Part shown: piece by piece, positions 26,242 through 36,407 of the stretch
Position numbering within the stretch: the first letter of the stretch is position 1
Layout: every line of letters begins with the position of its first letter
DNA from: a bacterium
Lineage (GTDB): Bacteria; Babelota; Babeliae; Babelales; GCA-2401785
Direction: 5' to 3'
Length of the DNA: 64,000 bases
NCBI GenBank assembly: GCA_023249975.1
Contig: JAHFBP010000007.1
Location: 12,198-76,197, forward strand
Notes under the pieces: generated by a model
What the model was told of the DNA's origin: nothing
The model's database searches: none
The model's input: the letters and a program-made list of their open reading frames with translations, nothing else
Position numbers and translations under genes: made by a program

Positions 26242-26311
26242 CATGGCTACGCAAAATCAACCGGATGGTGTATTCTGATAGTATGTGCCCAGGGTACCAA
26301 GCTTTATCAAT
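26242..26311 (+). repeat. Second copy of the 70-bp leader
   Basis: CATGGCTACGCAAA...GGTGTATTCTGA.AGTATGTGCCCA...TTTATCAAT. Confidence 0.8.
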
Positions 26312-26324
26312 GAAGAGGTGGAAG

Positions 26325-27161
26325 ATGATATATTTAGACCCCAGAAGCGACATGGTCTTTAAAAAACTGTTTGGCGATATCACCCACAAAAACATTTTAA
26401 TCAGCTTTTTGAACAGTGTTTTAGGTCGAGTTGAAGGTAAAAAAATCATTGATGTTGTCATTAATGACCCAAGCAATGTCCCCGAAACTCCGCTTTCCAA
26501 AACCAGCATCGTCGATGTCCGTTGCACCGATCAAAGTAGCAATCAATATATTGTTGAGATGCAGGTAGTTACCCAAAAAGACTATGGTGCCAGAGCCCAA
26601 TATTACAGTTCTCTTGCGCTCAGTCGACAACTAGCTTCGGGAGAATCGTATAGCAAGCTTGTACCGGTTATTTTTGTTGGAGTACTTGATTTTTCACTCT
26701 TCAAGACTTCCAATTATATAAGCCACCATTTCATTTTAGATAATGAAACCCATGAGCATGAACTTGCGCATATGGAGTTCCATTTTATTGAACTACCAAA
26801 ATTCAATAAAAAACCTGAAGCCCTTAATGGCATTCTTGAGAAATGGATCTATTTCATCAAAAATGCCGGCTTACTCCAAAAAGTTCCAAGCTACCTCAGC
26901 GAGCCTGTTTTGACCGAAGCCTTTGGCGTGCTTGCGCAAAGCAATTGGTCCATCCCAGAATTGGAAGCCTACGACCGATACCAAGATTCAATCAGATCTG
27001 CCATCGGACAACTTGAAGCTGCCATGGAAAAAGGCATGGAAAAAGGTATAGAAAAAGCTCGTCTTGAAATGGCAAAAAAATTACTCTCCAAACTTGATAT
27101 TGCGGCCGTTGCCGAAATCACTGGGCTGTCGGTTGAAGAACTTACAAAACTTAAAAAATAA
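26325..27161 (+). CDS. Rpn-family recombination-promoting nuclease / PD-(D/E)XK putative transposase
   Basis: LDPRSD.VFKKLFG, D.RC....YIVEMQ, FIELPKF, GMEKGIEK repeats, IAAVAEITGLS tail. Confidence 0.9.
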   Translation: MIYLDPRSDMVFKKLFGDITHKNILISFLNSVLGRVEGKKIIDVVINDPSNVPETPLSKTSIVDVRCTDQSSNQYIVEMQVVTQKDYGARAQYYSSLALSRQLASGESYSKLVPVIFVGVLDFSLFKTSNYISHHFILDNETHEHELAHMEFHFIELPKFNKKPEALNGILEKWIYFIKNAGLLQKVPSYLSEPVLTEAFGVLAQSNWSIPELEAYDRYQDSIRSAIGQLEAAMEKGMEKGIEKARLEMAKKLLSKLDIAAVAEITGLSVEELTKLKK

Positions 27162-27170
27162 AGCGAAAAA

Positions 27171-29633
27171 ATGGATAAACGATACGATCATATTCAGTGC
27201 GAAAAACAACAACAAGATTTGTGGGCCCAAAAAAAGGTCTACCAATTTGACCCAGCAAACTCAGGTGAAGTGTTCAGCATCGACACGCCACCTCCGACTA
27301 TTTCGGGCAAACTCCACATTGGACACATTTTTTCGTACACCCAAACTGATCTGATCGCACGATTCCGGCGCATGCAGGGGCGCAATGTCTTTTATCCGAT
27401 GGGATATGATGACAACGGCCTGCCCACAGAATTGTATGTAGAAAAAAAGAATAAAGTGCGCGGCGGCGCCATGAAGCGCTCTGAATTTGTTGCCCTGTGC
27501 ATCAAAGAAACTGAACTGGCCGCAGACATGTACAAAGACGTGTGGCAACGCATGGGAATTTCTGCCGACTGGGACCGCTCCTATTCGACCATTGCCCCAA
27601 AAGCACAACGCGTTGCACAACATTCATTTGTTGAACTTTATGCCAAAGGCTTGATTTATCGCAGATCAGAACCTGCCATCTATTGCACCTCATGCCGAAC
27701 TTCAACTGCGCAAGCGTTGCTCGAAACGGCAGATATCAAAAGTACCTTCAACACCATTGTATTTAAAGACCACAACGGTTCACCGGTTCACATTGCCACA
27801 ACCCGTCCGGAACTTTTGCCAGCGTGCGTAGCCGTGTTCTATCATCCTGATGATGCTCGATTTGCACATCTGAACGGTACCATGTTGACTACCTCCTATT
27901 TTGGCAAACAAGTTCCCGTCATGCCGGACGAATCGGTCGACCCAGAAAAGGGTACCGGAATTGTTATGTGCTGTACTTTTGGAGACCAAAAAGATATTGA
28001 ATGGTACAAAAAACATCAGTTGCCATTTGTTCAGATTATCGACTTTGACGGTAAATGGTTACCCAACTCGGGACCTCTTGCAGGCCTGAAGGTCCATGAA
28101 GCTCGCAAAACGATGATCGACTTGCTCAAAGCGAGCGGTGAACTGATTGAGCAAAAAGAAATTACTCATGCCGTTCATGTGGACGAGCGCTGCAAAAAAG
28201 AAATAGAATTTTTGATTCTTGAGCAGTGGTTCGTCAAAATTTTACCCTACAAACAAGATTTTTTGGATTTAGCTGACCAAATTGTGTGGAAACCTGCGTT
28301 CATGAAATCTCGCTACCGCGAATGGGTATCAGGACTTTCGTGGGACTGGTGCATCTCACGCCAACGTTTTTTTGGTATCCCTTTCCCCGTGTGGCACTGC
28401 CAAGATTGCAGACACATGATTGTGGCCACACCCGAAATGTTGCCGATCGATCCTCAAGAAACTGAATACCCCGGCAAAGTGTGTCCGCAGTGCAAAAGCA
28501 CAAACCTCAAGGCCGACACCGATGTGATGGACACCTGGAACACCTCTGCATTGTCACCACAAATTAATGCAGGATGGCCTGATAACAATGGACCTGTTGG
28601 GCTGCCAATGTCGATGCGCCCTCAAGCTCACGACATTATCCGCACCTGGGCGTTTTACACCATCGCCAGATCATATGCACACACCGGAATGATTCCATGG
28701 AAAGAAATTATTATTTCTGGTCATGCACTTGCAGGACGTGGTGAAAAATTCTCCAAATCTGCGGGAAATGCATTGCTCGACCCTATTAATTTACTCCAAG
28801 CGTATTCTGCCGACTCAGTCCGTTATTGGGCTGCCAGCGGAAAATTAGGGGTGGACATTCTGTTCAGCGAAGAACAGCTGAAAATTGGGCAACGCTTGAG
28901 TACCAAATTGTGGAATGCGTTCAAATTTTGCCATGAGCACATATCTTCGGCAAATATTAGAAAACCTAAAAACCATGTACCAACTGATGCCGTCAACAAA
29001 TGGCTGTGTCACCGCATGAATCAAACCTACACTGAATATCTCAAGGCTTTTGATGCGTATGAATATCATCATGCATTGGAAGTGGTTGAAAAATTATTCT
29101 GGAATGATTTTTGCGACAATTATTTGGAATTGATTAAAGACAGACTCTTCAATCCCGACAAATATGATGCATCCGTCAATGCTGACACGATTGCAACCTT
29201 GTACGAAGTTGGTCTTGCAATCCTGAAAATGTTCGCTCCGATCATGCCGCATATTACCGAAACGCTATTTGGGTATATTTATGCACAAACTGAGAATGCT
29301 CCATCATTGCACGCAACCACATTCACACCAGAACGCTATGCTCATTATCATTATGCTGATGACGCAGAAATTATGGATCGTATTGTCGAAGTGGTCAGTG
29401 CAGTGCGCAAGCTCAAATCTGAAAATCAAGTCTCTCTCAAAACGCCTATTGAAGTTTTAAGCTTAAGTGCATCAGACACTGCACTATTGAAAAAGATACA
29501 AGAACATGAAACTTTGATTAAAGGGGTGACGCTTGCTGTGCATATTAAAACATCTCACCTCATAACTGAAGAAAACGTGATGGTTGAAGTTGACGGTGTT
29601 TGGCATGCTGCAATTAGTATGGAGAAGGAATGA
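27171..29633 (+). CDS. valS: Valine--tRNA ligase (archaeal-type)
   Basis: DTPPPTISGKLHIGH, ATTRPELL, DWCISRQR, RPQAHDIIRTW, KFSKS; no bacterial C-terminal coiled-coil arm. Confidence 0.95.
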   Translation: MDKRYDHIQCEKQQQDLWAQKKVYQFDPANSGEVFSIDTPPPTISGKLHIGHIFSYTQTDLIARFRRMQGRNVFYPMGYDDNGLPTELYVEKKNKVRGGAMKRSEFVALCIKETELAADMYKDVWQRMGISADWDRSYSTIAPKAQRVAQHSFVELYAKGLIYRRSEPAIYCTSCRTSTAQALLETADIKSTFNTIVFKDHNGSPVHIATTRPELLPACVAVFYHPDDARFAHLNGTMLTTSYFGKQVPVMPDESVDPEKGTGIVMCCTFGDQKDIEWYKKHQLPFVQIIDFDGKWLPNSGPLAGLKVHEARKTMIDLLKASGELIEQKEITHAVHVDERCKKEIEFLILEQWFVKILPYKQDFLDLADQIVWKPAFMKSRYREWVSGLSWDWCISRQRFFGIPFPVWHCQDCRHMIVATPEMLPIDPQETEYPGKVCPQCKSTNLKADTDVMDTWNTSALSPQINAGWPDNNGPVGLPMSMRPQAHDIIRTWAFYTIARSYAHTGMIPWKEIIISGHALAGRGEKFSKSAGNALLDPINLLQAYSADSVRYWAASGKLGVDILFSEEQLKIGQRLSTKLWNAFKFCHEHISSANIRKPKNHVPTDAVNKWLCHRMNQTYTEYLKAFDAYEYHHALEVVEKLFWNDFCDNYLELIKDRLFNPDKYDASVNADTIATLYEVGLAILKMFAPIMPHITETLFGYIYAQTENAPSLHATTFTPERYAHYHYADDAEIMDRIVEVVSAVRKLKSENQVSLKTPIEVLSLSASDTALLKKIQEHETLIKGVTLAVHIKTSHLITEENVMVEVDGVWHAAISMEKE

Positions 29634-30085
29634 TCACAGTCACCACAAAATTGCGCAATCTTCCATTTACCGTCCCAAGTTTGCACACAAAGTTTGAAGC
29701 GATGCTCAAGGCCCTAGATTATCAGGGCTTTGACGTCTCGGTAATTTTGACAACCAATGCAACCATCAGAAATTACAACAGAGAATATCGCAACAAAGAC
29801 AAAGCAACGGACATTCTTTCATTCCCCTACTACCCTGATCATATTCCCGGAAAGCGCATCAAGCCAACTTCGAATGATGAAAAAAATTTGGGTGATATTA
29901 TCATCTCAGTTGAGCGAGTTGCTGCTGACGCAAAAAAATACGGCGTCACGTTTCAAGAGCGATTTGACATCATTATTGCACACGGAATTGCCCACTTGCT
30001 CAATTATGACCACATCACAGATGAAGAATTTGCGGTGATGCAAAAAGTTGAAAAAAAACTTTTAAAGGTCATTGCGGCGTTATAA
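29630..30085 (+). CDS. ybeY: rRNA maturation endoribonuclease YbeY
   Basis: YR.KDKATDILSFP, LGDIII, HGIAHLLNYDH. Confidence 0.95.
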   Translation: MITVTTKLRNLPFTVPSLHTKFEAMLKALDYQGFDVSVILTTNATIRNYNREYRNKDKATDILSFPYYPDHIPGKRIKPTSNDEKNLGDIIISVERVAADAKKYGVTFQERFDIIIAHGIAHLLNYDHITDEEFAVMQKVEKKLLKVIAAL

Positions 30086-30142
30086 TCTAGACCATAAATA
30101 AAATGCGTAGTACCTTTGCTCAAAAAATTAAAGGTACTGCGC

Positions 30143-30775
30143 ATGAATACAACCAAGGGAACCTTAGAGATTATTTGTGGGGGTATGTTTTCAGGAAAAT
30201 CTAGTGAGCTTATCAGTAGATTGGAACGTGCTGAAATTGCAAAAAAACGATGTATGGTTTTCAAAAATTCAAGCGATGCACGCCGTAAAACTGATGCTAT
30301 TTCAACTCATGATGGACGCGAATACGCTTCCATTCCCATCGCCAACAACGAGTGTGATAAAATTCTCGAAATGACCAATCATAGTGTTGATGTAGTTGCC
30401 ATTGATGAAATTCAATTTTTTAACATGACGATCATCGACACAATTTCCAGTTTGTTGAATGACGGCAAGCGCGTGATTGTCTCCGGATTGGATATGGATT
30501 CACATGGTCTACCATTTGGGATAATTCATATTTTACTTACCATGGCAGAACACATAACCAAACTTCATGCCGTTTGTAATGTATGCGGAGCTGATGCCAG
30601 TTTTAGCCAAAATATTATTGATGGTCGTCCTGCGACATTCGAAAATCAAACACAATTTCAAGAAAATACCGGACTGTATGAAGCACGATGCCGAACACAT
30701 TTTTTTATTGAACTTCCTGATAAATTGAGCACACTCATATTGAAACAGTTCAACCAATTGTACACTCAAAAGTAG
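30143..30775 (+). CDS. tdk: Thymidine kinase (TK1 family), divergent, no signal peptide
   Basis: GGMFSGKS, IDEIQF, CxxC...CxxH zinc site. Confidence 0.85.
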   Translation: MNTTKGTLEIICGGMFSGKSSELISRLERAEIAKKRCMVFKNSSDARRKTDAISTHDGREYASIPIANNECDKILEMTNHSVDVVAIDEIQFFNMTIIDTISSLLNDGKRVIVSGLDMDSHGLPFGIIHILLTMAEHITKLHAVCNVCGADASFSQNIIDGRPATFENQTQFQENTGLYEARCRTHFFIELPDKLSTLILKQFNQLYTQK

Positions 30776-30783
30776 AGTAACCC

Positions 30784-31443
30784 ATGCTTAAAAAAACAAT
30801 CTCAACCCTCATGCTATTCGTATCTTTTCAGGTGCACGCCTTGGAAAAACCCATTAAAAATGGTCGCCTGGAAGTCATTTGCGGATCCATGTTCTCCGGA
30901 AAATCAACTGAATTACTACGTCGCATCAAGCGGGCAAAACATGCGAAAAAAGAAATTCTTTCAATCAAGTCACATCTGGACACACGACGAGAAGAATTCT
31001 GCATCACAACTCATGATGGACAAAAGCAAACAGCTCATCTTCTCTCCAATAACATGGAAAATTTGTCTGATTCTATTACAAAACTCAGCGAAGGTGTTGA
31101 TGTTGTAGGTATTGATGAAATTCAATTCTTTCCATATAAAATGATCTCTATTATCGAAAACCTTATCGAAAAAGGCATAATAGTTATTGTTGCAGGCCTT
31201 GACTTAGATTTTCGAGGTGAACCATTCAGTATCATGCCAGAACTCATGGCAAAAGCAGACAAAGTGCACAAGTTTTCTGCAATTTGCTCAAAATGCGGCA
31301 ATGATGCTCATTACTCACAGCGCATTATTAATGGTAAGCCTGCAAAATATGATGACCCAATTATTATGGTCGGCGCAGAAGAATGCTATGAAGCTCGATG
31401 CCGTAATTGTTTTGAAACTCACAAGCCTCAAATTACAAATTAA
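30784..31443 (+). CDS. tdk: Thymidine kinase with N-terminal signal peptide
   Basis: MLKKTISTLMLFVSFQVHA followed by GSMFSGKS, IDEIQF, GLDLDFRGEPF, VGAEECYEARCRNC. Confidence 0.9.
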   Translation: MLKKTISTLMLFVSFQVHALEKPIKNGRLEVICGSMFSGKSTELLRRIKRAKHAKKEILSIKSHLDTRREEFCITTHDGQKQTAHLLSNNMENLSDSITKLSEGVDVVGIDEIQFFPYKMISIIENLIEKGIIVIVAGLDLDFRGEPFSIMPELMAKADKVHKFSAICSKCGNDAHYSQRIINGKPAKYDDPIIMVGAEECYEARCRNCFETHKPQITN

Positions 31444-31474
31444 TCAAAAAAGTTCTATACAAATTATATTATTT

Positions 31475-31513
31475 TGACATGTGGATGTTTTGGGTAAAAC
31501 CTCCACATGTCAA
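31475..31513 (+). terminator. Hairpin after the second tdk
   Basis: TTGACATGTGGA...TCCACATGTCAA. Confidence 0.6.
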
Positions 31514-31719
31514 TGTATTTTTCAAAAAATGATAATAATTATTTGAATAAAATAGCAAGAAATATAGTTGTTAAATACTCACATTTTTATCTTGAACTTC
31601 CTGTCAAATTAAGCAAAATGTAATGTGACAACAATCAACGAATACCCAAATCGGTATGTTTAATATGATTAATTAATATGTTTGATTAATATGTTTGGCA
31701 GAGCGAAGGACGATTCTCT

Positions 31720-33000
31720 ATGTTATATAAAAAATACATCACGGCAATCCTCGTCATTACGTGTATATCTATGAACTTCGCTCAAGAAAAACACCAAAAA
31801 AAAGGCTGCCTAGAAGTCATTTGCGGCTCTGTTTTTTCAGGAAAAACGACCGAATTATTACGCAGAATGGAACGTGCTGAATACAAAAAAAAAGACGTTG
31901 TTTCAACAACCACGCATCTTAACATGCAAAAAAACGAACTCTGCATTAGCACCCATAATGGACAAAAATATATAACACAACCAATCCTTGAATCTGATAA
32001 AGAAAAGTGCCTCGAAACATCGATTATGCAATTGGTTGGAGATACTACAAATGTTTTTGGTATTGATGAAATTCAATTTTTCCCTGATCAAATAATTCCT
32101 ATAATTCAGAGCCTTATCGACCGAGGAGTTACCGTAATTGTTGCAGGGCTTGATTTAAATTGCCAAGGCGAACCTTATAGTATTATGCCTAAATTAATGG
32201 CTCTTGCTGATAAACTTACAAAGCTTTCTGCATGCTGCATTAAATGTGGAAATGATGCGTATTTTTCTCAACGTATTATTAATGGAATTCCGGCAAAATA
32301 TGCCGCAGCACTTTCTACCACCACAGATATTGAAAATTGTCATCAACCTCGATGCCGCAACTGTTTTGAATCTTATAAAATTCCCGAACCAACACATGAC
32401 CCAATAACTTATACCAAAAAGGGTTCGTTAGAAGTTATTTGCGGCTGTATGTTTGCAGGAAAATCAACCGAATTACTGCGGCTCATAGATCGGGCTGAGC
32501 ATAATAAGAAAAAAGTTGTCGCTATAAAACCTCAACTCGAAAGTTATTATCATAATTTTTTTATTACCACCCACAATGGCGAAAAGCGAGCCGCGCAACT
32601 CATTTCAACACACGAACGTAATCTTGAAGCTACTGTACTTCAATTATGTAAGGATGCAGATGTCGTTGGACTCGATGATGTTCACTTTTATCCTCAAAAA
32701 ATGATCTCCATAATCAACAAGCTTATTAATAATGGAGTTACCGTCATTGTTGCAGGACTTGATTTAGATTTTCGAGCTGAGTCATTTGGTATCATGCCAG
32801 AACTTATGGTGCGAGCTGATAGAATTAAAAAGCTCTCTGCTGTTTGCATAAATTGTAATCACCGAAAAGCTCGCTTTTCACAAAGAATTATCAATAATAG
32901 CCCTGCAAAATATGACACTCCTATTATTATGACAGGCGCTGAAGAATGCTACCAACCACGATGTTCCGATTGTTTTGCAACATACAAACCAATAGAATAG
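31720..33000 (+). CDS. Tandem double-domain thymidine kinase with signal peptide
   Basis: MLYKKYITAILVITCISMNFA followed by two complete TK1 domains (GSVFSGKT / GCMFAGKS). Confidence 0.9.
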   Translation: MLYKKYITAILVITCISMNFAQEKHQKKGCLEVICGSVFSGKTTELLRRMERAEYKKKDVVSTTTHLNMQKNELCISTHNGQKYITQPILESDKEKCLETSIMQLVGDTTNVFGIDEIQFFPDQIIPIIQSLIDRGVTVIVAGLDLNCQGEPYSIMPKLMALADKLTKLSACCIKCGNDAYFSQRIINGIPAKYAAALSTTTDIENCHQPRCRNCFESYKIPEPTHDPITYTKKGSLEVICGCMFAGKSTELLRLIDRAEHNKKKVVAIKPQLESYYHNFFITTHNGEKRAAQLISTHERNLEATVLQLCKDADVVGLDDVHFYPQKMISIINKLINNGVTVIVAGLDLDFRAESFGIMPELMVRADRIKKLSAVCINCNHRKARFSQRIINNSPAKYDTPIIMTGAEECYQPRCSDCFATYKPIE

Positions 33001-33039
33001 AGCTATGCACTTTATTTAACACATGAAATTATCATTACC

Positions 33040-34425
33040 ATGGCTCGCATAAAATCATTATTTAGTTGCTCAGAATGTCACTACGAATGTCCAAAGTGGA
33101 TTGGTCAATGCCCGCAATGTTCCACATGGAACAGTTTTGTTGAAGTCAAGGCGCTACCCAGTTCACAAGGAGGACTGAGTAAGTCTACCCACAAAACACA
33201 ACCTTCAAAATTATTTACACTCGACGAACTTCCTGATGAAAAATACAGCCGTTTTTCATGCGGCATGGACGAATGGGATCGTGTATTTGGTGGTGGCATT
33301 GTACCCGGTTCATTTACTATTTTGACCGGTGATCCTGGAGTAGGAAAATCTACACTTCTTTTGCATGTTGCTGACAAAATTGCTCAGCAAAATCACAAAA
33401 CTTTATATTTTTCATCTGAAGAGTCTGTTGAACAAGTCAAAGGCCGTGCATTGCGGCTAGGTCTTGGAAAAACCAATGTTTTATTTTCAGATGAACCAAG
33501 CCTTGAAAATATTATTGCAACAGCTCAGCAAGAAAAACCAGCACTACTGATTTTAGATTCAATTCAAAGTTGCCATGTCACCTCACAAACCTACAGCTTT
33601 CCGGGTAGCATTGGACATCTGCGCGAAGCTGCTTTCCAGCTCATGCGACTTGCAAAAAGTGAACGCATTGCGGTACTGATTACCGGGCACATTACTAAAG
33701 ATGGCAGCATGGCCGGCCCTAAATTATTGGAACACATGGTCGACGGCGTATTTTATTTGCAAGGCGACAACCAATGGCAAACGCGCATTCTACGCTCTGT
33801 TAAAAATCGATTTGGTACCGTCAACGAAATTGGCTTTTTTGAAATGGGCGAAAATGGCATGGAACAAGTCTCTGATTTGAACCACCAAATGCTCGAAAAT
33901 ACTACCGCCACTCCCGGATCAGTGTTGACCTGTTGTATGGAAGGCTCACGCCCCGTTCTCGTTGAATTGCAGGCACTGTGTGTTCCGTCCAAGTTTGCCA
34001 GTCCACAGCGCGTGATAAGTGGAATTGACCACAAGCGGGTGGTAATTGCGGCGGCAATTTTGGAAAAATATTTGAGAATTAAAATGAGTGCTCATGACAT
34101 TTTTTTCAAAGTCAGCGGCAGTTTTTTTGTCAAAGAACCGGCCAGTGATTTGGCCATTATTCTTGCACTACTCTCCAGTTATTTGCAGCGCAAGTTACCC
34201 GATAAAACTATGATCATTGGGGAAGTAAGTTTGACCGGAAATATCAAAACCGCACAACAAACACCAACCCGAATTAAAGAAGCTCTCAAGTTTGGTGCAA
34301 CAACTATCATTACTGCTAAAAATATTCATCAAGAATTTGATAAAAAACATGGTATACTGGCGATTAAAAGCGTGTACGAAACACTCGGATTATTTCCAGA
34401 AAATGAACCTGAACCACATTATTAA
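33040..34425 (+). CDS. radA: DNA repair protein RadA/Sms
   Basis: C4 zinc finger, GDPGVGKS, KNRFG motif. Confidence 0.97.
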   Translation: MARIKSLFSCSECHYECPKWIGQCPQCSTWNSFVEVKALPSSQGGLSKSTHKTQPSKLFTLDELPDEKYSRFSCGMDEWDRVFGGGIVPGSFTILTGDPGVGKSTLLLHVADKIAQQNHKTLYFSSEESVEQVKGRALRLGLGKTNVLFSDEPSLENIIATAQQEKPALLILDSIQSCHVTSQTYSFPGSIGHLREAAFQLMRLAKSERIAVLITGHITKDGSMAGPKLLEHMVDGVFYLQGDNQWQTRILRSVKNRFGTVNEIGFFEMGENGMEQVSDLNHQMLENTTATPGSVLTCCMEGSRPVLVELQALCVPSKFASPQRVISGIDHKRVVIAAAILEKYLRIKMSAHDIFFKVSGSFFVKEPASDLAIILALLSSYLQRKLPDKTMIIGEVSLTGNIKTAQQTPTRIKEALKFGATTIITAKNIHQEFDKKHGILAIKSVYETLGLFPENEPEPHY

Positions 34426-34567: not shown

Positions 34568-35179
34568 ATGAATATGCATAAAATCGCCCTTGGACTTGTC
34601 CTTGTATTTTTAAACGTTAATCTGCCCGCAGCACCAAAACGATCATTACTGGAAGCTGAGAACTCCCCAGAAAAATATACTAAATTCGTACCGACTCAAA
34701 AAAGTTCTGTTGGAAATGCGACTTTTGAAAAACCACTGAATTGGCAAGATGATGAAAAAGCCAAAGCTATAATTACAGAATTTAAACAACAATTACGTTT
34801 TATTTTTGAAGCAGCTCAACCACAAAGAAACCTAACTCTCAATCAAGATATCTTCAACGGTACTCCTGATGATTGTACTGAAGATATTTGTAATGTTTCC
34901 AAAATAACCGAAGTACTTGAACACTTAAAAGACCAAGCAAAAGCTGTTATTACACAGACTCATCCTTTTTTACAAATTCACGAACACAATTTGCCTTCAA
35001 TTTGGTATCAAATTAACAAAGACTGCAATCAGCTTATGACTATAGTTTCAGGATTAATTATTCTTGATACTGAAGAACAACGCGTGATCTGCTCATCACT
35101 TTGGACTATTTACAAATCAACTTACAATCTCACTCTGGAATATTCACAGCTCCCTGGCGCACACAGCTACAAAATTTGA
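34568..35179 (+). CDS. Hypothetical secreted protein
   Basis: Signal peptide, 203 aa. Confidence 0.7.
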   Translation: MNMHKIALGLVLVFLNVNLPAAPKRSLLEAENSPEKYTKFVPTQKSSVGNATFEKPLNWQDDEKAKAIITEFKQQLRFIFEAAQPQRNLTLNQDIFNGTPDDCTEDICNVSKITEVLEHLKDQAKAVITQTHPFLQIHEHNLPSIWYQINKDCNQLMTIVSGLIILDTEEQRVICSSLWTIYKSTYNLTLEYSQLPGAHSYKI

Positions 35180-35187
35180 AAGTTATC

Positions 35188-35856
35188 ATGAAATTAAGAA
35201 TTATTACGGCATTGCTCACGTTATCACTCATTTCAACCCCAGCTTTTTGTCCACCCAAAAGTACATCACCCAAAAGCCCTCTAGAGCGCGTTAAAACTCA
35301 AGATACGGACATCTGGAAGTCATCCTTATCAAAACGGCCACCAACACCTATAAAATTGACTGCAATACCTCCAAAAGCAATTCCTGCGCCAAAGCCACAG
35401 CCTAAATCTGTTACATTTAATAACACTGTAACCGTTGTGCACCAGCGAACACCCGTTATACAACCAGAAGATACACCAAGCTCTTCTCTTGATGTGCTTT
35501 TTTCTCGTATGCAATTTAAACAAGCACAAGACGCCTTAGAGCCCTTTGAAGCCGACATATTACCGCTGTTTGAAGGATACGCCACAGAATGGAATGCACG
35601 CAAAACTTCTGACTGTGATTTAACGCGTCGCCTTATCAGCAATAGAAGCCTCTATCAACTAAAAATGCTTTGTCACAAACACAAGATCGACCAAGAATCT
35701 GCAGAATTCATCGTCTTGCAAACACATGCTGCTCTTGTGGCCCTTTTGACTGATGTCATCAGACAAGACTTTTTTATAGACATACAGATATGTGCCTTAG
35801 AATTTGCACAAAAAATACATGCTGCATCTCTTGCCAACCATGAAATTGCAAAATAA
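35188..35856 (+). CDS. Hypothetical secreted protein, paralog family member 1
   Basis: Signal ...AFCPPK, Pro/Ser-rich linker, shared C-terminal helical domain. Confidence 0.7.
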   Translation: MKLRIITALLTLSLISTPAFCPPKSTSPKSPLERVKTQDTDIWKSSLSKRPPTPIKLTAIPPKAIPAPKPQPKSVTFNNTVTVVHQRTPVIQPEDTPSSSLDVLFSRMQFKQAQDALEPFEADILPLFEGYATEWNARKTSDCDLTRRLISNRSLYQLKMLCHKHKIDQESAEFIVLQTHAALVALLTDVIRQDFFIDIQICALEFAQKIHAASLANHEIAK

Positions 35857-35861
35857 TTGTA

Positions 35862-36407
35862 ATGAAAAAAATAACTGCCATATTAATTGCAACATTGGGC
35901 GCAATGCAGAGTTTAGCATTGTGCCCCCCAAAAAAAGACTCGGGACATAAAAAAAGTTTTCGCGCATCAATCAACAACAACCGACGCATTGCTAATGAAG
36001 TCCTTAAATGCTCTGCTGCCTGCCTGACAACACTTAATCCTAGTGAATACTCTTCAAGCACATTTAATGATGAAGTTCTGACACTTTTTAATACATATGA
36101 AGGATTGTGGTTCGGGTGCAACAAAGAAAATCTCACAGAGATCGAGCAACAATCTCTCTTTGATCTCAATAAAATTTGTAACAATTACAAATTCCAGCTT
36201 AATCTTGATCAAGAAGTGATTGATACCGTCATTCCACGGACTTATCTGGAAATTGTCGATATATTTACACATCATAGAAAAGAATCACGCGAAAGTTTTG
36301 CATCTCACCTGCGAATCTGTGCTTTTAACTTTATCTTAAATATACTTTCGACCAAGCCTGCTCAAAGCCCTCGCAAAGCCTCCCCTCGATCCATCGTTTC
36401 GGATTAA
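35862..36407 (+). CDS. Hypothetical secreted protein, paralog family member 2
   Basis: Signal ...ALCPPKK; shared domain F...L.LF..Y...W...LRICA. Confidence 0.7.
   Translation: MKKITAILIATLGAMQSLALCPPKKDSGHKKSFRASINNNRRIANEVLKCSAACLTTLNPSEYSSSTFNDEVLTLFNTYEGLWFGCNKENLTEIEQQSLFDLNKICNNYKFQLNLDQEVIDTVIPRTYLEIVDIFTHHRKESRESFASHLRICAFNFILNILSTKPAQSPRKASPRSIVSD

Follow-up and report, generated by a model that had tools for sequence, protein, structure and literature searches.

Three TK1-family genes in tandem, together encoding four TK domains of full length, occupy positions 30143–33000 of the window (the whole stretch of DNA analysed, 64,000 nucleotides), as seen by ORF reading and profile search (Table 1; G000 denotes the genome under study and other G-numbers denote comparison genomes). 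PF00265 (Pfam) scored 146.2 bits for tdk-1, 176.8 for tdk-2 and 244.9, in two stretches, for tdk-3; each domain covered profile positions 1–176 of 176 (2–176 in one case), with 113.9–177 bits against a cut-off of 20.6. The NCBIfam thymidine-kinase equivalog NF003296 (cut-off 183) yielded 213.4, 246.1 and 377.8 bits, respectively. A six-frame search of the whole genome returned exactly these four domains and found no further TK domain. The ORFs, both profiles and the six-frame search thus bear out the preliminary description, which had reported four domains in three tandem genes; ORF reading likewise found no leader on tdk-1, and the leader sequences of tdk-2 and tdk-3 are identical to those written there. 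The fusion of two TK domains in tdk-3, also claimed earlier, is supported by Pfam and by an AlphaFold2 model (mean pLDDT 88.7, pTM 0.87) with two TK folds preceded by a lower-confidence helix at residues 2–20. The top PDB matches in Foldseek were bacterial TKs, with the viral TKs 2J87 and 9K6K as structural neighbours.

Table 1. Coordinates, in window positions, of the tdk genes and associated features
Feature	Position	Strand	Description
tdk-1	30143..30775	+	210 aa from ATG 30143; leaderless; TK domain 30158-30703
tdk-2	30784..31443	+	219 aa, N-terminal leader; TK domain 30862-31413
tdk-2 leader	30784..30840	+	residues 1-19: two Lys, uncharged hydrophobic core, V-H-A at likely cleavage point
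Possible alternative, leaderless tdk-2 start	TTG 30841..30843	+	in-frame (Leu20), AGGTG 6 nt upstream
tdk-2/tdk-3 spacer	31444..31719		276 nt; AAGGA 10-14 nt before tdk-3 ATG
Hairpin then U-rich tract	31475..31513	+	-22.7 kcal/mol, z -4.94, 0/200 shuffles as stable
tdk-3	31720..33000	+	426 aa, leader and two fused TK domains: a 31807-32367, b 32422-32976
tdk-3 leader	31720..31782	+	residues 1-21; rule prefers cut after 17 (or 21)
Possible alternative tdk-3 start	ATG 31771	+	in-frame, Met18
radA	33040..34425	+	conserved neighbour 3' of tdk in relatives

The gene junctions are not assembly artefacts: a contig from another run spans 30772–32026 and one from a different study spans 30682–30832, each with 0 differences. 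AAGG/AAGGA is an enriched SD-like motif in G000 (AAGGA 12.7% versus 2.9% shuffled), and AAGG lies 9–12 nt 5' of the tdk-1 ATG; a TTG further upstream, at 30116, would add nine residues devoid of a hydrophobic core. The ATG of tdk-2 (30784) comes 8 nt past the tdk-1 stop. No Rfam match was found in the spacer that separates tdk-2 from tdk-3, and its 12 promoter-like matches were not above the shuffles (mean 12.4). The hairpin in this spacer, which a simple terminator scan missed, is predicted to be the likely terminator of a tdk-1/tdk-2 unit. The tdk-radA order also occurs in G003, G195 and G057, and the conserved radA 3' of tdk identifies the locus as the ancestral tdk site.

Only tdk-2 keeps all near-invariant TK residues, and the other three of the four domains have lost some. 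Over 70 columns with conservation of 93% or more across 115 reference TKs, tdk-2 deviated at 8, tdk-1 at 19, tdk-3a at 19 and tdk-3b at 18, although the reference set consists of the best matches of a tdk-2 search and therefore leans towards tdk-2. With this leaning, the earlier claim that the most canonical copy bears a leader stood. The P-loop, catalytic Glu, lasso and zinc cysteines of tdk-2 all line up with those of 1XX6 (E 1.2e-53), and in the tree tdk-2 has the shortest branch within the G000 clade. The P-loop (G-x4-G-K-S/T) is present in all four domains. An Asp-x-Arg pair after strand 2, with a role in phosphate/Mg handling, is 100% conserved in the 115 references; it is retained by tdk-1 and tdk-2 and replaced by Asn/Gln in tdk-3a and by Glu/Tyr in tdk-3b. 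The catalytic Glu of D-E-x-Q-F-F is found in tdk-1, tdk-2 and tdk-3a, with Asp instead in tdk-3b; it is the catalytic base, E85 in the Leishmania TK, and the same report describes a lasso held by Arg and Tyr and a structural zinc held by four Cys (PMC4433323). The lasso Arg and Tyr and the four Cys are complete in tdk-2 and tdk-3b; tdk-1 has Asn for the lasso Arg and His for the fourth zinc Cys, and tdk-3a has His for the lasso Tyr.

Judged by these residues, both halves of tdk-3 are degenerate. They nest with tdk-2 of the same genome in the tree, so the fusion is phylogenetically independent. Two TK1 domains per chain also form the pseudo-dimers of Trypanosoma brucei and Giardia intestinalis, in which an inactive domain supports its partner (PMC9190010). 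In contrast to these, the tdk-3 fusion is separate in origin, is bacterial and carries a leader, and neither half has the Asp/Arg pair. The earlier suggestion that some copies act as nucleoside binders fits tdk-3, given the loss of this pair from both halves.

Sec signal peptides have a positive n-region, a hydrophobic h-region of 7–15 residues and small residues at -3 and -1. A heuristic rule of our own, built on these features, was positive for tdk-2 (cut after residue 19) and tdk-3 (cut after 17 or 21), and the anatomy of both leaders resembles that of other signal-peptide-like N-termini in G000. The rule is lenient: in the six frames of G000 it accepts 1020 of 19299 (5.3%) open stretches that begin with ATG, it accepts 244 of 753 ORFs, and it misflags six ordinary TKs via their first strand and P-loop. 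Given this background, one leader alone is weak evidence. The Tat consensus has an R-R motif in the n-region; neither leader contains an Arg, so no such motif is present. A lipoprotein signal (signal peptidase II) was considered and rejected: a lipobox has Gly, Ala or Ser directly ahead of the Cys at +1, but Cys is absent from the tdk-2 leader and V-I-T-C in tdk-3 has Thr at -1. Profile searches of G000 found SecY (328 bits) and signal peptidase I (PF10502, 120 bits).

The starts of tdk-2 and tdk-3 could have been set too far upstream, the leaders being untranslated AT-rich DNA that is open and hydrophobic by chance and all three TKs being cytoplasmic. Both genes do offer alternative starts, the rule passes the stated fraction of random ATG-started stretches, and in relatives the canonical TKs begin 10–20 residues ahead of the P-loop, close to the position of the internal starts. 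Moreover, in G002 the only tmk is extended upstream by a signal-peptide-like stretch, after which comes an internal Met, indicating that such extensions can arise on enzymes expected to be cytoplasmic (the tmk of G000 is leaderless). Against this stands, in the first place, the age of the duplication. By their divergence tdk-2 and tdk-3 are old paralogues, with 57% residue identity between tdk-2 and tdk-3a in the kinase domain and 47% identity at third codon positions. Their leaders nevertheless both remain ATG-started, open and signal-peptide-like, start alike and share 7 of 21 residues; in a neutral-decay simulation with 60% of sites redrawn, 0.9% of leaders kept all of an ATG, an open frame and signal-peptide-like character, so that retention by both paralogues at near-saturated third positions would be expected in less than 1% of cases. 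In addition, AAGGA precedes ATG 31720 and is absent before ATG 31771.

The distribution of leaders across the order also argues against mis-set starts. TK N-termini were read in 72 Babeliales genomes; the sole-copy TKs read numbered 59, out of 219 genomes of the phylum with a TK match. A leader-bearing copy was found in 10 of the 72 (G000, G002, G010, G055, G057, G126, G207, G227, G228 and G230) and in 10 of 13 two-copy genomes, against a single one of the 59 sole copies (G195). The search for signal-peptide TKs in other Babeliae genomes, proposed in the preliminary description, thus produced nine further two-copy genomes as well as G195. In all nine leader-TK genomes where both copies were read, the second copy was leaderless. 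In four of the leader-bearing TKs (G010, G055, G126 and G207) no codon that could serve as a start (ATG, GTG or TTG) follows the hydrophobic core ahead of the kinase domain, and their leaders must therefore be translated. In the G195 group, a 4-residue indel between leader and domain stays in frame. In G227, G228 and G230, three species of one genus, the leader is on orthologous copies, with differing leader sequences. In most of the leader-bearing copies the P-loop, Asp/Arg pair, catalytic Glu, lasso Arg/Tyr and zinc cysteines are intact. The leader-bearing copies occupy separate supported places in the tree (G000 clade 97, G002 pair 95, g131 clade 97), which suggests repeated gains. The retention by paralogues and the pattern across genomes together place the leaders above chance, and we consider mis-set starts an unlikely explanation. 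As had been proposed, the leaders look like real signal peptides, and they are of the Sec type by our rule and by the comparative evidence; we infer that translation in G000 begins at the upstream ATGs, and export of tdk-2 and tdk-3 by their leaders is a well-supported prediction.

It could also be that each leader gene uses two starts, the upstream ATG giving an exported protein and TTG 30841 or ATG 31771 a cytoplasmic TK. Such an arrangement would suit the in-frame starts that directly follow the hydrophobic core in tdk-2, tdk-3, G002, G057, G195, G227 and G230, the AGGTG before the TTG of tdk-2, the status of tdk-2 as sole fully canonical TK in G000, and the single TK gene of G195, where the leader is combined with an internal Met that is conserved and common to two metagenomic relatives. 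It is not general, however, as the four genomes lacking any start codon after the leader demonstrate; a second cytoplasmic isoform would be needless where a leaderless copy is kept, as it is in every fully read two-copy genome; and AGGT and GGTG show no enrichment before genes in G000. We regard dual localisation as improbable.

A further possibility, very unlikely in our view, is an uncleaved N-terminus that anchors the enzyme in the inner membrane, perhaps next to a nucleotide or nucleoside carrier. The uncharged stretches reach 16–17 residues if polar ends are included, in tdk-2 and tdk-3 the charges on either side of the core are about equal, and the tdk-3 leader contains a Cys, all of which could accommodate an anchor. 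The hydrophobic cores, however, extend over just 10–12 residues, which is short for a transmembrane segment, and small residues occupy -3 and -1 behind them; cleaved signal peptides typically look like this. The post-leader regions in other genomes are mostly neutral or acidic, as would be expected of exported proteins, and V-I-T before the Cys of tdk-3 is unlike the usual lipobox.

The preliminary description had set these genes in a scheme of nucleotide parasitism and had named NTT transporters and the loss of thyA/thyX as points to check. Three genes for NTT-type nucleotide carriers (PF03219) are present in G000. NTTs are inner-membrane carriers with an established role in nucleotide uptake; we know of no dTMP carrier. 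Searches of the genome, which is 92.8% complete, turned up no RNR large subunit, NupC, NupG, Bmp or dNK, consistent with a parasite importing nucleotides in preference to nucleosides. The second check did not bear out a loss: thyA is present (394 bits), so thymidylate synthase is retained and TK is not essential for dTMP; thyX was not found in G000. The earlier premise of a periplasm without ATP is doubtful here, given that NTTs must draw host nucleotides through the periplasm, and host ATP should therefore reach that compartment. The parasitism scheme as a whole is supported in part. A strong RNR match was found in 4 of 11 leader-TK genomes versus 7 of 10 others, a difference that does not cleanly separate the groups. 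As regards the delivery into host cytosol or vacuole that had been suggested, two secretins are encoded in G000, but nothing ties them to the TKs.

Our preferred model, which we hold to be somewhat probable as a whole, is that the ancestral tdk, located beside radA, underwent a lineage-specific tandem expansion in a small-genome Babeliales (Dependentiae) bacterium. In this model tdk-1 would remain cytoplasmic, and tdk-2 and tdk-3 would cross the inner membrane by means of cleavable Sec-type (signal peptidase I) signal peptides. tdk-2 would be a catalytically intact thymidine/deoxyuridine kinase acting in the periplasm or further out and drawing on host ATP, which would cross the periplasm to the NTT carriers anyway. 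It would convert host deoxynucleosides to dTMP/dUMP, a nucleotide form unable to diffuse away, which could then pass into the bacterium, or into a host dTTP pool tapped by it. The fused pseudo-dimer tdk-3, with each half short of key catalytic residues, would more likely be a binder of thymidine or thymidine nucleotides, or a support for tdk-2, than an efficient kinase. Gene structure, family, retained and lost residues, leader features, their recurrence in relatives and the gene inventory are observed directly, whereas cleavage, compartment, ATP source, product fate and the role of tdk-3 are what we infer. The pattern in this parasite and its relatives suggests that a normally cytoplasmic DNA-precursor enzyme is also active outside the bacterial cytoplasm. 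If tdk-2, the only canonical TK and the copy closest to relatives' cytoplasmic TKs, were exported, the divergent tdk-1 would be the one TK remaining in the cytoplasm, which speaks against the model. Also noted on that side were the leader on the sole TK of G195, the start just past the leader in both G000 genes, the upstream extension on the tmk of G002, the presence of thyA, the lack of a known dTMP carrier and the distribution of RNR matches.

A wider reading, which we offer tentatively, is that in Babeliales one step of deoxynucleotide salvage takes place beyond the bacterial cytoplasm. TKs that arose by duplication would have gained Sec signals repeatedly and independently and would be exported to the periplasm or host; host ATP and thymidine or deoxyuridine would yield nucleotides for uptake by NTT-type carriers; and degenerate fused copies such as tdk-3 would be extracytoplasmic binders of thymidine or dTTP.

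TK1 enzymes are textbook cytoplasmic salvage enzymes. The bacterial TK1-type Tdk of Clostridium acetobutylicum (1XX6) and Bacillus anthracis (2J9R) belong to the same family and share the fold; known Tdk enzymes are single-domain, leaderless and cytoplasmic, whereas two of the three genes here have signal-peptide-like leaders and one encodes a double-domain protein. No exported bacterial TK was found in the open literature searched, and a report on a phytoplasma TDK describes no secretion of a PhoA fusion (PMC13637368). The closest parallel in logic, an obligate intracellular parasite exporting a small-molecule kinase, is the hexokinase of microsporidia, a normally cytosolic kinase with a secretion signal that is sent into the host cell, its secretion being experimentally shown (PMC3976299). 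It differs in being eukaryotic, using the ER route and belonging to another enzyme family with another substrate, and secretion of TK is a proposal. Some bacterial pathogens are reported to secrete nucleoside diphosphate kinase or adenylate kinase, which act on host nucleotides; to our knowledge, these lack classical signal peptides and belong to another family, and none is a nucleoside kinase. A further parallel is with the TKs of large DNA viruses (those of vaccinia and monkeypox viruses being TK1-type), parasite-encoded enzymes that act in the host cytosol and raise the supply of thymidine nucleotides. The viral enzymes are synthesised in that compartment and require no signal for export, whereas here one or two bacterial membranes would have to be crossed.

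If this reading is correct, the TKs would form the first nucleoside kinase system known to be exported by bacteria, as far as the literature searched extends, and a bacterial counterpart to the viral TKs and the microsporidian secreted hexokinase. They would represent a class of TK whose export signals were acquired on several occasions within a single phylum of obligate intracellular protist parasites. For a reduced bacterium such a system would open a new route to DNA precursors, with the host nucleoside phosphorylated outside and the nucleotide imported; alternatively, the benefit might come from pushing the host's own dTTP pool. The question bears on how Dependentiae without ribonucleotide reductase obtain deoxynucleotides. 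The pairing of leaderless and leader-bearing copies, with a leader copy in ten genomes, would constitute a clean natural case of subfunctionalisation by compartment. Were the leaders non-functional, the tandem expansion and its double-domain TK in a bacterium would still be unusual, though of modest interest. Other two-domain TKs in the database search were of trichomonad (about 350 aa) and metagenomic (380–386 aa) origin.

The preliminary description had placed four thymidine kinase (TK) domains in three tandem genes, and this is borne out by Pfam, by NCBIfam and by a genome-wide six-frame search (1.09 Mb), which detected no further TK domain: all four lie in the array tdk-1, tdk-2 and tdk-3, the last with two fused domains (tdk-3a and tdk-3b). 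PF00265 covers each domain end to end in Pfam (146.2 bits for tdk-1, 176.8 for tdk-2 and 244.9, in two stretches, for tdk-3), and the three proteins score 213.4, 246.1 and 377.8 bits, respectively, against the NCBIfam thymidine-kinase equivalog NF003296, all above its cut-off of 183. The top database relatives of tdk-2 are named as Babeliales or Dependentiae thymidine kinases (55–63% identity), in alignments that skip the first 10–14% of the query, which is its leader, a Sec-type signal-peptide-like stretch ahead of the TK domain in tdk-2 and tdk-3. A search of 5.8 billion proteins returned nothing above 63% identity to tdk-2 or 48% to tdk-3. In the AlphaFold2 model of tdk-3 (pLDDT 88.7, pTM 0.87), two TK folds are packed against each other, preceded by a helix of lower confidence at residues 2–20; the top PDB matches of the model are bacterial TKs.

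Thymidine kinase array and its flanking genes (positions within the window)
Feature	Position	Orientation	Basis
ybeY, upstream flank of the array	29630-30085		
tdk-1	30143-30775	same strand as tdk-2 and tdk-3	ORF and profile match
tdk-2, 219 aa	30784-31443	same strand as tdk-1 and tdk-3	ORF and profile match
tdk-3, 426 aa	31720-33000	same strand as tdk-1 and tdk-2	ORF and profile match, two stretches
radA, downstream flank of the array	33040-34425		

Contigs from other sequencing runs span 30772–32026 and 30682–30832 with no differences, which rules out an assembly artefact at the gene junctions. The tdk–radA order is common to three relatives (G003, G195 and G057), which indicates that the array expanded at the ancestral site. 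A strong hairpin at 31475–31513 followed by a U-rich tract (−22.7 kcal/mol, z −4.9) probably ends a tdk-1/tdk-2 transcript. Rfam gave no matches in 29900–33200, and promoter-like sites at the TK locus were no commoner than in shuffled sequences; no promoter is claimed.

The domains were compared at 44 columns conserved in at least 99% of 115 reference TKs, a set drawn from the tdk-2 search and thus biased towards tdk-2. In most leader-bearing copies, here and in relatives, the P-loop, Asp/Arg pair, catalytic Glu, lasso Arg and Tyr and zinc cysteines remain intact; the functions assigned to the Glu, to the lasso Arg and Tyr and to the cysteines follow the Leishmania TK structure (PMC4433323). 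tdk-2 retains all these residues, and none of its three deviations falls at a residue of known role. In tdk-1, the lasso Arg is replaced by Asn and one zinc ligand by His. Neither half of tdk-3 retains the Asp/Arg pair; in addition, tdk-3a is missing the lasso Tyr and tdk-3b carries Asp in place of the catalytic Glu. As had been proposed, the most canonical active site sits on a leader-bearing copy, tdk-2 being the sole fully canonical kinase of the genome. Judging from these substitutions, tdk-3 resembles a pseudo-dimer in which both sites are weakened. In the tandem TK1 of Trypanosoma brucei and Giardia, one domain is inactive and acts in support of its active partner (PMC9190010); the fusion in tdk-3 is independent of these.

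Both leaders contain two lysines, an uncharged hydrophobic core of 10–12 residues and small residues at −3/−1, and they are similar to many further N-termini of the genome; that they act as uncleaved membrane anchors is considered quite improbable. Lipoprotein and Tat readings were rejected, as the motifs do not match the respective consensus sequences. Our coded signal-peptide rule, a heuristic, fires on 244 of the 753 ORFs and is permissive, given that 5.3% of random ATG-started open stretches also pass. Its initial version misflagged six TKs of the ordinary kind because of their first strand and P-loop, and later counts are restricted to sequence ahead of the TK domain. In the cultivated relative Chromulinavorax, 44% of coding sequences are reported to have signal peptides (PMC6561590).

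Since the rule is permissive and alternative starts lie behind the leaders, evidence independent of it was sought. In-frame starts directly follow the leader in tdk-2 (TTG 30841, with AGGTG 6 nt upstream) and in tdk-3 (ATG 31771), and translation from these alone would leave the leaders untranslated, a reading that we regard as unlikely. The Shine–Dalgarno motif of this genome is of the AAGGA type, found before 12.7% of genes versus 2.9% in shuffled sequence; AAGGA is present at −14 to −10 of ATG 31720 of tdk-3, and no similar motif precedes ATG 31771. ATG 30784 of tdk-2 lies 8 nt downstream of the tdk-1 stop, an arrangement typical of coupling. The domains of tdk-2, tdk-3a and tdk-3b form one clade (support 97–99), within which the kinase domains of tdk-2 and tdk-3a are 57% identical in residues and only 47% identical at third codon positions, the latter being near saturation. 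Both genes nevertheless retain a signal-peptide-like leader that is open, starts with ATG and begins in a similar way, and in a neutral-decay simulation with 60% of sites redrawn, 0.9% of leaders survived as such. DNA contigs of four sequencing runs showed no informative variation in the leaders, and a search of sequencing runs returned no RNA data set covering 30000–33100.

A TK match was found in 219 of 261 genomes of the phylum, and the sequence preceding the TK domain was read in 72. Among 59 genomes with a TK gene read as the sole copy, one (G195) has a signal-peptide-like leader; these 59 comprise the best-scoring loci plus 20 picked for long open frames, a sampling in which sole-copy leaders on frames of ~210–225 aa may be undercounted. 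A leader-bearing copy is present in 10 of the 13 genomes that have at least two distinct TK genes (the genome under study, G000, together with G002, G010, G055, G057, G126, G207, G227, G228 and G230), a tally that leaves out ORFs running off the locus end, TK fragments of G193 and the first copy of G227. The search for signal-peptide TKs in other Babeliae, suggested in the preliminary description, thus found them in nine further multi-copy genomes and in G195. In all nine leader-bearing multi-copy genomes with every copy read, a leaderless copy is retained beside the leader-bearing one. In four of them (G010, G055, G126 and G207), the stretch from the hydrophobic core to the kinase domain contains no ATG, GTG or TTG, which makes the leader a necessary part of the protein. 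Three species of one genus (G227, G228 and G230) keep a leader, diverged in sequence, on orthologous TK copies at a separate locus, and metagenomic relatives of the G195 protein retain theirs through an in-frame four-residue indel.

Leader-bearing copies are scattered on the TK tree, several of them adjoining a copy that lacks a leader and comes from the same genome or family, which indicates that the leader was gained repeatedly. Support is 97 for the clade of the genome under study, 95 for the G002 pair and 97 for the g131 clade; elsewhere, support is low at many nodes, and branches are long for several leader-bearing rows. A single ancient clade of exported TKs was rejected in view of this scatter, with the weak nodes and long branches as a caveat. 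The tree leaves out P0061 (very long branch), the G193 fragments and duplicate or partial copies of G186, G140 and G129. All three two-copy genomes without a leader (G040, G023 and G128; loci L018, L019 and L050) belong to one genus, g22, and carry a tandem TK pair. Their second copy clusters with the leader-bearing copy of G126, which implies that the leader was gained or lost inside that paralogue lineage. In G193 (L059, C2:269000-273000), TK genes beside radA are split into several short fragments with stops, and the locus looks like a decaying tandem TK pair.

The only tmk found in G002 (G002:C21:8306-8890; L090/L097) extends upstream in frame with a signal-peptide-like stretch, behind which lies an internal Met. 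By its sequence, the extension may be fortuitous, the gene may use two starts, or it may encode a TMPK that is exported in parallel with the leader-bearing TK of that genome. Together with the leader on the sole TK of G195, this case warns that such extensions can arise by chance or that two starts may be used. Dual localisation of leader-bearing TKs through two starts would also account for a leader on tdk-2, the only canonical TK of the genome; on the whole, we find it doubtful.

We lean slightly towards plain export of tdk-2 and tdk-3. Both would be Sec-exported proteins, and SecY, signal peptidase I and two secretins are encoded in the genome. An exported intact TK could convert host thymidine or deoxyuridine to dTMP or dUMP outside the bacterial cytoplasm, either in the periplasm or in the host if the TK passes a secretin or leaves in vesicles. 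The product, a charged nucleotide, would be trapped and could be imported directly or after host enzymes had raised it to dTTP, and tdk-3 would serve as a binder of thymidine or its nucleotides, or as a helper of tdk-2. We know of no dTMP carrier. The genome also encodes three NTT-type nucleotide carriers. The preliminary description had also held that the periplasm lacks ATP. Because an inner-membrane NTT carrier only takes nucleotides already in the periplasm, we infer that host ATP should be available there to a bacterium in the host cytoplasm, which would lift the objection.

Loss of thyA, envisaged as a driver, was discarded, since thyA is present; its presence makes TK dispensable for dTMP synthesis, a point against the proposed role. 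No thyX, RNR large subunit, NupC, NupG, Bmp or dNK was found in this genome, absences that are provisional given its completeness of 92.8%. A wider set of exported kinases is unsupported, as tmk is present without a leader and dNK was not found. Within the family, G003 and G006 have RNR and a single leaderless TK, and the genome under study and G002 have leader-bearing TKs without RNR. A strong RNR match was present in 4 of 11 leader-TK genomes versus 7 of 10 others (21 genomes that are kin and not independent), so the association of leader-bearing TKs with RNR absence is only a trend. Genus g2 of the same family (G001 and G005; L086, L087, L091 and L093) has several dNK genes, up to four in G005, none with a leader; genera within a single family thus diverge markedly in how they salvage deoxynucleosides.

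The enzyme family itself is already known. Searches of the full-text literature found no periplasmic, secreted, exported or extracellular thymidine kinase and no relevant paper on thymidine kinase in Dependentiae; what appears to be new is the export signal, the fact that it was gained repeatedly, and the coexistence of a cytoplasmic and an exported copy. A phytoplasma TDK was not secreted in a PhoA fusion (PMC13637368). The closest analogy in logic comes from microsporidia, which secrete a hexokinase (PMC3976299).

The sole other signal-peptide-like P-loop kinase found in the genome is a 220-aa chloramphenicol-phosphotransferase-like protein (C17, L082:1358-2020, minus strand; PF07931, E 3.7e-29), which looks like a second, putatively exported small-molecule kinase. 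After radA, three consecutive small ORFs at 34568–36407 (203, ~207 and 181 aa) all have signal-peptide-like leaders and no Pfam matches; the second and third are paralogous to each other (28% identical across 98 residues, E 4e-8). A PD-(D/E)XK_2 family transposase-like gene (26265–27161; PF12784, E 5.3e-49) lies directly upstream of a class I tRNA synthetase gene. Contigs C1 and C2 of the assembly, of 6284 bases each, may be duplicates.
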